Shown one piece after another: positions 35,173 to 37,826 of a stretch of DNA of 64,000 bases. The notes below the pieces were generated by a model. That model made no database searches. It was given only the letters and a program-made list of their open reading frames with translations, and was not told where the DNA came from. The translations under genes and the position numbers were made by a program. The stretch lies in NCBI GenBank assembly GCA_964472305.1, contig CAYYJR010000001.1, positions 25,346 to 89,345 on the forward strand, written 5' to 3'. The stretch comes from an uncultured bacterium (GTDB lineage Bacteria > Armatimonadota > Hebobacteria > CAIYQO01). The first letter of the stretch is position 1; each line of letters begins with the position of its first letter.

Positions 35173-37500
35173 TTACCCTGCTTTCTGATTTCCTGTGAGA
35201 ACAACCGAATCGCCTGCCTTGAGTCTAAGCGTACGCCGGCTGGATCCGTGACAAACGACATAGTCCTGATCCCGATTTGCGCGCAGGCAGAGGTACGACA
35301 CTGCGCCGTCCTTCCATTCCAAATCCAGATGTGCACCGCCCCGCACCCGCAGTCCGCGCACGTGGCCCGTCGGCCAGGCTGTCGGCAGGGCTGGAAGCAG
35401 GCGGATCACCACGTGACCTTCCGCGTCATGCTCATGGCTCTGGACGAGCATTTCGGCGATCGCGGCGCAGCCGCCGAAGTTTCCGTCGATCTGGAAGGGG
35501 GGATGTGCACAGAAAAGGTTGGGATAGGTCCCGGCGTCCTCGCCGTCATAGTTGGTACCCGCCGCGAGGCTGGGCTTAAGCAGGTTCATCAGCAACTGGT
35601 GGGCGCGCTCGCCGTCGCCGAGACGGGCCCAGAAGTTAACCTTCCAGGCGAGAGACCAGCCGGTACCCCCGTCGCCGCGGCCCTCGAGTGTCACCCGGGC
35701 CGCCTGCGCCAGTGCGGGGGTCTCGCCCGGGGTGATCTGGTCGCCGGGGTGGAGCCCGTAGAGGTGGCTCACGTGGCGATGATGGGGATCCTGCTCATCG
35801 TAATCCTCGAGCCACTCCTGGATCTGGTCGCGACGGCCGATCTGGTGCGGGGTGAGCCGCGCGTGGGCTTCCCTGAGTTCGGCGGCAAAAGTGATGTCTT
35901 CATTCAGGATTTCGGCCGCCGCGATGCAATGGCCGAAGAGTTCACGGGCGATCTGGGTATCCATGGTCGGCCCCATGCAGGTGTTCAGACAGGTGCCGTC
36001 CGGAAGGCGGTAGGCGTTCTCCGGCGAGTTGGATGGCCCCGTCACCAGGTGGCCGGTCTCCGGGTTTTCGACCAGGAAGTCGAGGAGGAAGCGGGCGGCC
36101 TCGCGCAGGACCGGATAGACCGAGCGCAGGTAGCCGGTGTCGCCGGAGAAGGCGTAGTGCTGCCAGAGATGCCAGCAGAGCCAAGCCCCGCCGGTGTTCG
36201 TCGAGCCCCAGCCCGCATTCTGTCCTGGAGCGGTGAAGCCCCAGGGGTTGCAGATCACATGGGCCACCCAGCCGCGGGCTCCGTAGTAGGCTTCGGCGGT
36301 CTTGCGGCCGGGTTCGACCAGGCTCTTCACGAATTCGATCAGGGGCTCGTGGCATTCGGCGAGATTGGTCACCTCCGCCGGCCAGTAGTTCATCTGCGCA
36401 TTGATGTTCAGGTGATAGTCGCCGTTCCAGGGCGTCTGCAGCTCCTCAGCCCAGAGCCCCTGCAGGTTGGCCGGCAGGCCGCCGGGACGCGAACTGGAGA
36501 TGAGCAGGTAGCGACCGTACTGGAAATACAGGGCACAGAGGGCTGGATCCATCCCCTGTTCCTGCGCCCGATGCAGACGCCGGTCGGTGGGCAGGTCGTC
36601 CGCGGCATCCGCGTCGATCCCGATGGAGACACGGTTGAAGAGCGCCGTGTAATCGGCCACATGGCGCTGCCGCAGCTCATTCCAATCCCGCGCACAGGCA
36701 GCCGCAATAACCTCGGCGGTGAGCGTCTCCGGCTGGCCGCCCCAATAGTCGGTGGCGGCAGTGACGAGCACGACAGCGCTTTCGGCATCGTGCAGTGTCA
36801 CGATGTCGCCCTGAGCCGTCACAGAGCCGCCGCTGGCGGCGACTTTCAGCCGCGCGGCATAGCGCATGCCCTTGCCTCCCTGGCCGTTGGAGAGAACGCC
36901 GTCCAGCAGCAGGCCATCCTCGCCCTCGGCGCGGGTGCGGCCACGCTCCTGGCGGCTCAGGCGGAGGCGCAGGTTGAGCCGGGCGCCCTTTTCCGCCTGG
37001 AGGCGGAGCGCGATGACGCGATCGGGGAAGCTGGCAAAGAGCTCCTGACGAAATGTCGCGCCGTCGATGCCGTAGGTCAGTTCTGCGGTGGCCATCTGCA
37101 GATCAAGGCTGCGGCGATAATCCGAACAGGTCTCCACTTCCCTCCCGGGCCATTCGATGGTGAGATCACCGAGGATCTGGTAACAGCCGAAGGGAACCTT
37201 CCCTCCTCCGCCCACCTCCGTGCCCGAACCTTCGCCGGCACAGATGAAGTGCTTGCTCAGAAGCGCCTGGGCCTCGGTGTTGCGATGGTTGAAAAGGAGT
37301 TCGCGGATCTTCGGCAGCACCTTCCACGCATCGGGGCGGTCGGCCTGGTGGGGTGAGCCGGACCAAAGGGTCTGCTCATTCAGGACGATCCTGTCCCGCA
37401 CGGTGCCGCCGTACCACAGCGCCCCCATACGCCCGTTGCCGAGCGGCAGGGCCTCCTCAAAGCGGTTGGCCGGCCGGTCGAACCAGATGGTCTGCATCAT
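35173..37500 (-). CDS. Glycoside hydrolase family 95 (alpha-L-fucosidase-like)
   Basis: 775 aa; GH95-type N-terminus (MMQTIWFDRPANRFEEALPLGNGRMGALWYGG) and central (alpha/alpha)6-type region with the NINAQMNYWPAE motif. Confidence 0.8.
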   Translation of the reverse strand: MMQTIWFDRPANRFEEALPLGNGRMGALWYGGTVRDRIVLNEQTLWSGSPHQADRPDAWKVLPKIRELLFNHRNTEAQALLSKHFICAGEGSGTEVGGGGKVPFGCYQILGDLTIEWPGREVETCSDYRRSLDLQMATAELTYGIDGATFRQELFASFPDRVIALRLQAEKGARLNLRLRLSRQERGRTRAEGEDGLLLDGVLSNGQGGKGMRYAARLKVAASGGSVTAQGDIVTLHDAESAVVLVTAATDYWGGQPETLTAEVIAAACARDWNELRQRHVADYTALFNRVSIGIDADAADDLPTDRRLHRAQEQGMDPALCALYFQYGRYLLISSSRPGGLPANLQGLWAEELQTPWNGDYHLNINAQMNYWPAEVTNLAECHEPLIEFVKSLVEPGRKTAEAYYGARGWVAHVICNPWGFTAPGQNAGWGSTNTGGAWLCWHLWQHYAFSGDTGYLRSVYPVLREAARFLLDFLVENPETGHLVTGPSNSPENAYRLPDGTCLNTCMGPTMDTQIARELFGHCIAAAEILNEDITFAAELREAHARLTPHQIGRRDQIQEWLEDYDEQDPHHRHVSHLYGLHPGDQITPGETPALAQAARVTLEGRGDGGTGWSLAWKVNFWARLGDGERAHQLLMNLLKPSLAAGTNYDGEDAGTYPNLFCAHPPFQIDGNFGGCAAIAEMLVQSHEHDAEGHVVIRLLPALPTAWPTGHVRGLRVRGGAHLDLEWKDGAVSYLCLRANRDQDYVVCHGSSRRTLRLKAGDSVVLTGNQKAG

Positions 37501-37772
37501 CGTAACCCTCCCCCGTGAACAGGCGTGCCCAGACGCGCGGCGGGGAAAGCGTGGTACTCCGTCTCCACGCAGCGGAGCTCGAACCCGGTCGCGGAATCGC
37601 CGAACACCACCGCATGCCCAGTCCGGTTCGCATCCAGGGTGTGCGTCTCATCCCGGCGCGAACAGACGTCGAGCAACGCAGCCGAGGATTGCCCGCCGCA
37701 ACGGAAGGAGAACGGCAGGTCGGCTGCATCCCCCAACAGTAGATGTTTCTGCACCCAAGCGTGTGCCTGCAT
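37497..37772 (-). pseudogene. Remnant ORF homologous to the N-terminus of a GH36-like protein (about 90 aa), ending in ATGA/TGATG overlap with the GH95 start
   Basis: Translation MQAHAWVQKHLLLGDAADLPFSFRCGGQSS...LDANRTGHAVVFGDSATGFELRCVETEYHAFPA is about 60 percent identical to residues 1-90 of the GH36-like gene at 33066-35168, then diverges and stops; own SD (GAAAGG) before ATG 37772. Confidence 0.55.
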
Positions 37773-37826
37773 AGAGTTACCTTTCACCGGTTTTTGGATA
37801 TGGCATGGCGTTCCAGTCACTTCACG

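Follow-up and report, generated by a model that had tools for sequence, protein, structure and literature searches.

A truncated GH36-family gene between Nif3-like and GH95 genes in a bacterial glycoside hydrolase operon

Between a Nif3-like gene and a gene of the GH95 (alpha-L-fucosidase) family, on the minus strand of contig CAYYJR010000001.1, lies a short open reading frame (ORF) whose predicted product resembles the beginning of the GH36-family protein encoded just beyond GH95. We asked what this ORF, here called the GH36 stub, represents: a small gene in its own right, a copy of the beginning of its neighbor, a device that couples translation to GH95, or what is left of a gene that once stood in its place. 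The window that we analyzed, by which we mean the whole stretch of DNA, is 64,000 nucleotides (nt) long, and all of the relevant genes are encoded on its minus strand. The homology of the stub, its breakpoint, its positional and phylogenetic orthology to the GH36 gene of a related contig, its relaxed constraint and the absence of a small-protein family around it could each be established by sequence comparison, as described below. We consider it probable that the stub is a non-functional 5' relic of a GH36 gene that originally followed the Nif3-like gene and that was cut off by a rearrangement.

Homology, breakpoint and position of the stub

The preliminary description of this locus reported an ORF of 90-107 codons between the Nif3-like gene and GH95, noted that it matched the N-terminus of the adjacent GH36 protein (33066-35168) at about 60% identity, and named a pairwise alignment with GH36 N-termini as the check. 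The ORF comprises 91 codons if read from the ATG at 37772 and 107 codons if read from the GTG at 37820, and the alignment was significant: the product matched the N-terminus of the adjacent GH36 with 57% identity over 96 amino acids (aa) (BLASTP, E=3e-33), and the truly homologous part (37793..37539, codons 2-86) included 53 identical residues out of 85 (62%). At the DNA level the two were 79% identical over 206 nt (E=9e-48). The motifs that had been listed for this match (LPFSFR, LDANRT, ELRCV and TEYH.FPA) were all found in the stub, and Pfam searches confirmed the flanking genes as GH95, GH36 and Nif3-like. No Pfam or NCBIfam family was assigned to the stub ORF itself. In the full GH36 protein the Pfam Melibiase domain begins near residue 264, and alignments with solved GH36 structures begin only at about residue 182; the stub corresponds to a part, smaller than half, of the N-terminal beta-sandwich domain and includes none of the catalytic barrel. 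By sequence homology it belongs with the members of the GH36 family, and it lacks the catalytic (beta/alpha)8 barrel, with its nucleophile and acid/base aspartates, that marks a functional enzyme of that family.

In a DNA alignment of six sequences, the similarity to GH36 ended sharply after TTCCCCGCCG at 37538, and we place the rearrangement breakpoint at 37538/37537. The next 38 nt are unrelated to GH36. They form the leader of GH95, which holds GGGGGAGGG and is followed by ATGATG, the start of GH95, where two ATG codons stand in tandem. The TGA of the stub and the GH95 ATG (37500..37498) overlap by ATGA (37500..37497), in agreement with the earlier observation that the ORF diverges from GH36 and then terminates on the GH95 start. 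The ORF is thus made up of 77 relic codons, 13 codons read from the leader and the TGA over the GH95 ATG, and the last leader-read codon (R) has 2 nt in common with that ATG. An apparent extension of the similarity into the tail of the stub (FPAARLGTPVHGGG against FPAVEWLLYFRNGG) was rejected as chance; by our own count, about one third of the DNA bases match there.

Whether a full-length GH36 occupies the same position elsewhere, a comparison that had also been proposed in the preliminary description, was addressed with L086, a 40-kb ENA contig that we reached through the best non-self matches of the stub and that was our sole syntenic comparator. In L086 the Nif3-like gene (84% aa identity to that of the window over the first ~180 residues) is directly followed by a full-length GH36, and there is no GH95. 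Positions 9289-10421 of L086 are collinear with 38641-37538 of the window at 79.5% identity, running through Nif3, the spacer and the stub up to the exact breakpoint, and positions 10161-12248 align separately with the full GH36 (35170-33098) at 82%. The native GH36 Shine-Dalgarno (SD) sequence (GGGAG) and ATG are held in the ~25-27 nt that are present in the L086 spacer and are gone from the window, where the position of the old GH36 start codon now reads CAA. Past its GH36, the L086 DNA is not GH95 and has no similarity to anything in the window.

To place the stub phylogenetically we used the 255 bases common to the stub, the adjacent GH36, L086, and the GH36 relatives L002, L003 and L087. 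Twelve bases were shared exclusively by the stub and L086, none by the stub and the adjacent GH36, and 1-2 by the stub and each of the other relatives. Neighbor-joining grouped the stub with L086 at a bootstrap value of 91%, and the adjacent GH36 joined L003 and L087. The synonymous distance between the stub and the adjacent GH36 (0.67) was no less than the distances between the adjacent GH36 and its relatives from other genomes (0.44-0.64). These comparisons safely support the statement that the stub is a positional orthologue of the L086 GH36 and falls outside the subclade of the adjacent GH36. This is the pattern of a displacement scar, in which the fragment is the resident allele and the full copy comes from another lineage; it is not that of an in-situ duplicate, in which the fragment would be the closest relative of the adjacent gene. 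The ORF is, on all of these alignments, evidently an N-terminal remnant of a GH36-family gene and not a copy of the adjacent GH36, such that the GH36 origin given in the preliminary description stands and a derivation from the adjacent gene does not.

The relatives of the full GH36 at 86-87% identity sit in other, non-syntenic gene contexts, as in L002, where a GH2 gene lies upstream; the L003 contig is too short for a comparison of gene context. In L087 (4225-4350), the similarity to GH36 is lost past codon 102 or so, and from there to the end of the contig the DNA is unrelated and richer in A+T; a further truncation or insertion may lie behind this, or a chimeric assembly.

Decay of the stub and further scars

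The ORF is open and is called as a 91-aa gene by a gene caller in L001. We examined its pattern of substitution. The changes specific to the stub numbered 6 synonymous to 28 non-synonymous, as compared with 42 to 42 summed over the five intact copies (Fisher p=0.0017); the neutral expectation is approximately 1 synonymous to 3 non-synonymous. The changes strike residues that are invariant in the family (Y to D, E to G, A to E, D to A, and others), and the G+C content at third codon positions (GC3) is 0.74 in the stub versus 0.80-0.86 in the flanking genes. We found no sign of purifying selection on the encoded protein, and the stub appears to evolve as neutral sequence, free of protein-level constraint.

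HMMER, run exhaustively against 1.84 billion cluster representatives, found no homologous small protein, and the stub was a singleton among them. The other 254 significant matches cover only the GH36-derived part and end near stub residue 80, which is where the DNA homology ends, and those that could be placed come from the N-termini of GH36-like proteins, with many truncated gene calls from short contigs among them. The 11-residue tail, which is the GH95 leader read in another frame, had no match anywhere. Identical copies of the stub occurred only in three samples of the same organism, and a word-indexed protein search with the stub returned only itself. The stub is therefore not a conserved independent small gene, and the earlier view of it as a remnant holds.

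The coordinates of the stub and of its neighbors are collected in Table 1. Read 5' to 3', the gene order is URO-D-like, Nif3 stub, 714-aa GH36-family, Nif3-like, GH36 stub, GH95 and 700-aa GH36, such that GH95 now separates the relic from the full-length GH36, which starts 4 nt past the GH95 stop.

Table 1. Features of the hydrolase operon, listed 5' to 3'
Feature	Coordinates	Strand	Remarks
URO-D-like gene	41897..40932	minus	
Nif3 stub, 40-codon ORF	40935..40813	minus	first 36 Nif3 codons and 4 leader codons
GH36-family (Melibiase) gene, 714 aa	40816..38672	minus	Pfam PF02065, PF16874; between Nif3 stub and full Nif3
Nif3-like gene, 267 aa	38630..37827	minus	PF01784; contiguous with GH36 relic, as in L086
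Spacer between Nif3-like gene and GH36 stub	37794..37826	minus	lacks ~25-27 nt relative to L086 (alignment)
GH36 relic, 255 nt	37539..37793	minus	homologous to GH36-family codons 2-86
ORF open across GH36 relic	37772 (ATG, 91 codons) or 37820 (GTG, 107 codons) to TGA 37499..37497	minus	
GH95 leader, 38 nt	37501..37538	minus	unrelated to GH36; carries SD GGGGGAGGG (37514..37506)
GH95 (alpha-L-fucosidase family) gene, 775 aa	35173..37500	minus	PF22124/PF14498/PF21307; PF22124 E=6e-185
Full-length GH36-family (Melibiase) gene, 700 aa	35168..33066	minus	PF02065 E=5e-26

We came upon a second relic through a weak match of L086 to the DNA upstream of the 714-aa gene. This ORF, the Nif3 stub, reads MKAKDILEHFLSRADRIKRVRTFDTIMGDPGEKFDR-KERA* and contains the first 36 codons of the Nif3 gene; it matched the full Nif3 with E=2e-9 and with 68% nt identity over 111 nt. 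There is an ATGA overlap at either end of it, between its ATG and the stop of the URO-D-like gene and between its TGA and the start codon of the 714-aa gene. Past the breakpoint there are only 11 nt, which are the SD (AAGGAGAG) and spacer of the 714-aa gene. The Nif3 stub is closer to L086 and to the family consensus (HFLSRAD) than to the adjacent full Nif3 (HFISRSA).

A third scar is present in L002, whose GH36 is 87% identical to that of the window and has its start overlapped by the GH2 gene. Approximately 290 nt upstream of GH2 is a patchwork (1740-1948, upstream of a GH2-GNAT fusion gene) in which GH36 codons 1-23 are followed by GH36 codons ~145-180, read in a different frame, and then by the final 63 nt of the 714-aa gene. 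The 3' end of the 714-aa gene is also found at positions 1-193 of L002 and is therefore duplicated around an oppositely oriented ADH gene. When we surveyed, in a crude way, 130 loci with 1083 long ORFs (1.9 Mb), we found very few 5' stubs at E<=1e-6, and for this reason the concentration of stubs in the hydrolase operon of this lineage is notable. Elsewhere, L115 has a gene for 698 aa (11095-13191, minus) of which short pieces, matching residues 2-22 and 58-82, occur 3.4-3.6 kb upstream of it (16609-16849), with an oppositely oriented 489-aa ORF between the pieces and the gene; perhaps a gene was interrupted here too, in a different organism and as an unrelated event.

Just upstream of the URO-D-like gene are two tandem paralogues (42006-43865 and 43875-45596, minus; 619 and 573 aa) that have ~89-95% aa identity and no confident Pfam family. 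A scan of 33000-41200 for sigma-70 promoters and terminators gave nothing above the shuffled expectation and none in the GH36 stub, and an Rfam scan of the stub region gave no family. The sole Rfam family in the window is a ribosomal protein L10 leader (RF00557, 45.5 bits) at 16786-16943 (minus). Plus-strand antisense ORFs over the stub (37220-37774, 37515-37742 and 37525-37914) had no Pfam match and were treated as high-G+C noise.

Competing accounts of the joint and the open frame

We propose the following history. In the ancestral order, the Nif3-like gene would have been followed by a resident GH36 (GH36a). A rearrangement would have fused this resident gene, at its codon 86, with DNA that begins 38 nt upstream of GH95, and GH95 would have come followed by a second GH36 (GH36b) of a different sub-lineage, a copy that would have made the resident gene dispensable. 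The stub would then have drifted neutrally, losing its own ribosome-binding site and start codon, and its frame would still be open only because stop codons are rare in a genome of 63% G+C. Any ribosomes that translate the stub from the weak ATG at 37772 would terminate on the GH95 start, and GH95 would still initiate from its own strong SD. How the joint arose we can only infer, and we weight incoming DNA slightly above deletion; the stub would be a scar either way. In the form that we favor, an incoming segment of GH95 leader, GH95 and the 5' part of a GH36 would have taken the place of GH36a starting at codon 87, by homology-facilitated illegitimate recombination (HFIR) with one joint that was illegitimate and one crossover, within GH36, that was homologous. 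Displacement by HFIR would leave a resident-type stub beside a foreign-type full copy, as observed.

A number of observations weigh against this history. Sliding-window identities of the full GH36 against L086, L002 and L003 showed no clear switch, and we found no donor or intermediate arrangement, nor any adjacency of GH95 and GH36 in 80 GH95 loci. L086 is the only syntenic comparator, and its Nif3 and GH36 (9300-12261) carry approximately 13 single-base insertions relative to all relatives, which could reflect either poor consensus near the end of a long-read contig or real decay. The branches of the stub and L086 are both long, and several of the states that they have in common look ancestral when compared with distant homologues; what is firm is therefore the placement of the stub outside its neighbor's subclade, rather than as the sister of L086. 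Finally, 91 open codons and an ATGA ending at both stubs are also what selection for coupling would be expected to produce. The gene calls for Nif3 and GH36 in L086 are fragmented, and the GH26 and GH38 genes just upstream of them are intact.

Searches for further relatives of the locus covered several collections. A GH95-anchored scan of a genome collection yielded no close or syntenic locus, the best match having 55% identity in metagenome-assembled genomes of Armatimonadetes/Fimbriimonadales, and a metagenome scan anchored on Nif3 gave 45 loci (53-68% identity), in all of which GH36, GH95, an adjacent URO-D and the 714-aa gene were absent. Among 5.8 billion protein clusters, no relative of GH95 exceeded 59% identity. 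Unlike GH95, the GH36 beside it has relatives at 86-87%, and Nif3 has one at 84%.

The account that competes best with incoming DNA is a simple deletion, to which we give a real though minor share of credence. The ancestor would have carried Nif3, GH36a, a spacer or other genes, GH95 and GH36b in cis, and after GH36a had become redundant, one or more deletions would have removed it from codon 87 on, up to a point shortly before the GH95 SD. Bacterial genomes have a deletional bias, the patchwork in L002 looks like stepwise deletional trimming, and the pair of paralogues upstream of the URO-D-like gene provides another example of tandem copies in the window. Furthermore, the G+C content and GC3 of GH95 are like those of its neighbors and give no compositional sign of recent import. 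However, the L086 sequence after GH36a is neither GH95 nor similar to the window, and two independent deletions would each have had to end 11-38 nt from the next ATG with the SD spared. That GH95 lacks relatives above 59%, though GH36b has relatives at 86%, also speaks against deletion, but weakly, because the relatives are known from short contigs only.

A different account concerns the open frame rather than the joint. The preliminary description credited the stub with its own SD and suggested that it had been kept because it supplies translational coupling to GH95. The stop of the stub does overlap the downstream start, as coupled genes do. We estimated SD strength as the computed pairing energy to the canonical anti-SD, for which random window positions gave -3.1 +/- 2.5 kcal/mol. 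The stub ATG is indeed preceded by an SD-like AAAGG, but only by that: at -4.3 kcal/mol it is weaker than had been stated and lies within the window background. The GH95 SD, at -11.8 kcal/mol, is in the top 2% of that background, and the SD of the 714-aa gene measures -8.5 kcal/mol.

We think it unlikely that the stub is a selected "launch-pad" ORF, whose ribosomes would finish at ATGA and either start anew on GH95 or open up the structure around its start, with the stop-free frame maintained for this purpose. Such selection would fit the ATGA overlap at both stubs of the operon, each of which is open in the one frame out of three that stops at ATGA, as well as the retention by the Nif3 stub of its native ATG, which is ATGA-coupled to the URO-D-like gene and so forms an unbroken chain; the rarity of 5' stubs in the surveyed loci would fit as well. 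On the other side, GH95 and the 714-aa gene each have a strong SD of their own, and the GH36 stub has lost its native SD and ATG and is left with a start whose SD is at background. Its amino-acid sequence is unconstrained, although this is not fatal to the idea because coupling needs an open frame only. Chance could account for the frame: in simulations that placed 34-64 random substitutions on the inferred ancestor, the frame remained stop-free in 14-33% of trials (P = 0.14-0.33). The 38-nt leader is open in all three frames, one leading to the ATGA stop, one to a fusion with GH95 and one to a stop 27 codons inside GH95. The prior for the frame observed is therefore 1/3, and the joint chance of the ATGA frame at both stubs is about 1/9. 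By these estimates the open frame and ATGA ending appear compatible with chance. There is also no coupling at the L002 scar, which is frameshifted and ~290 nt from the next gene. Selection for coupling is not needed, since GH95 has its own strong SD; coupling may arise as a by-product, and GH95 appears able to do without it. We conclude that the suggested retention for coupling is unsupported, though not refuted, in view of the neutral evolution of the stub, the loss of its native start signals, the strength of the GH95 SD and the compatibility with chance.

It is also conceivable, but in our judgment improbable, that sugar-utilisation operons in this lineage grow by a repeatable "stub-and-restore" process. 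A new hydrolase gene would enter a resident gene within its first few dozen codons and bring a fresh copy of the latter with it, and the stub would then be selected to stay open and to stop exactly on the ATG of the newcomer, such that the newcomer would inherit the translation and coupling chain of the resident gene. This process would count three instances: the GH36 stub leading to GH95, the Nif3 stub leading to the 714-aa gene, and the L002 scar.

Very little speaks for a partial duplication in situ, in which GH95 would have been inserted into the adjacent GH36 with duplication of its first ~260 nt and the copies would have diverged in place. The segment does begin at about the start codon in both copies, on either side of the inserted gene, and the geometry at Nif3 is the same; but the stub has no exclusive bases in common with the adjacent GH36, its grouping with L086 has 91% bootstrap support, and its synonymous distance of 0.67 from its neighbor compares with 0.44-0.64 between that neighbor and relatives that have other upstream genes. 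An assembly or binning artefact, that is, a chimeric contig built from reads of two GH36 alleles, is scarcely credible: the genome does derive from a metagenome, and public data do contain co-occurring GH36 alleles with 80-87% identity, but the junctions from Nif3 through the stub to GH95 are covered at 100% identity by three independent Logan assemblies from different runs (SRR12261225, SRR12261223 and SRR21424289), and they are for that reason not an artefact of assembly.

Significance and comparison with known systems

Returning to the relic of a displaced resident gene as the preferred reading, the stub is an ordinary pseudogene fragment and rearrangement scar that gene callers have mis-annotated as a hypothetical protein. 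In annotation, its 91-aa "hypothetical protein" should be marked as a fragment of a GH36 pseudogene, and the 40-codon Nif3 stub should be treated in the same way. Some added interest comes from the repeated occurrence of the rearrangement pattern in the same operon and in a related contig; new here are the 40-codon Nif3 stub that ends in ATGA on the inserted 714-aa gene, and the GH36 scraps in L002. The locus would record the rebuilding of an operon, in which Nif3-GH36 became Nif3-stub-GH95-GH36 and URO-D-Nif3 became URO-D-stub-GH36-like-Nif3, with the displaced and replacing copies coming from different sub-lineages. If ATGA-ending stubs were in fact selected, they would show how a newcomer gene plugs into an existing coupling chain, and the present evidence does not require this.

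Like ordinary pseudogene fragments, the GH36 stub has an incomplete domain, a ratio of non-synonymous to synonymous substitution rates of about 1, lost start signals, a decaying codon bias and an occurrence in one species only. Unlike them, it forms a clean, annotated 91-codon ORF that ends on the start of the next gene, and a second relic, built in the same way, lies 3 kb upstream. The four-base ATGA overlap of stop and start is that of translationally coupled overlapping genes, but here the upstream partner appears to be decaying and has a weak start, and the GH95 SD is predicted to be strong and independent.

The duplication of gene ends by mobile elements offers a further comparison, since phage 21 and e14 restore the 3' end of icd at integration. 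As at icd, the insert here brings a replacement gene end and is flanked by a diverged duplicate fragment. In contrast to those elements, the insert is a single hydrolase, the duplicated end is the 5' end, and integrase, att repeats and genes of mobile elements are all absent.

The closest likeness is to the orphan immunity genes and 3' effector remnants in T6SS (type VI secretion system) clusters of Vibrio cholerae, and to the orphan arrays of Rhs and contact-dependent inhibition (CDI) systems, which have been attributed to HFIR (Kirchberger et al. 2017, PMC5361080; for HFIR, de Vries & Wackernagel 2002 and Prudhomme et al. 2002 are among the sources cited therein). The polarity here is reversed, in that the 5' end is kept upstream of the incoming gene and the presumed anchor is downstream, and the loci in question encode catabolic glycoside hydrolases and a Nif3-like protein rather than toxin/immunity pairs. 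HFIR is moreover an interpretation here and not a finding. In both settings, nevertheless, a module with its own, phylogenetically distinct copy of the common part cuts the resident gene and displaces it, the old fragment stays beside the new module, and the process can repeat to leave several scars per locus.

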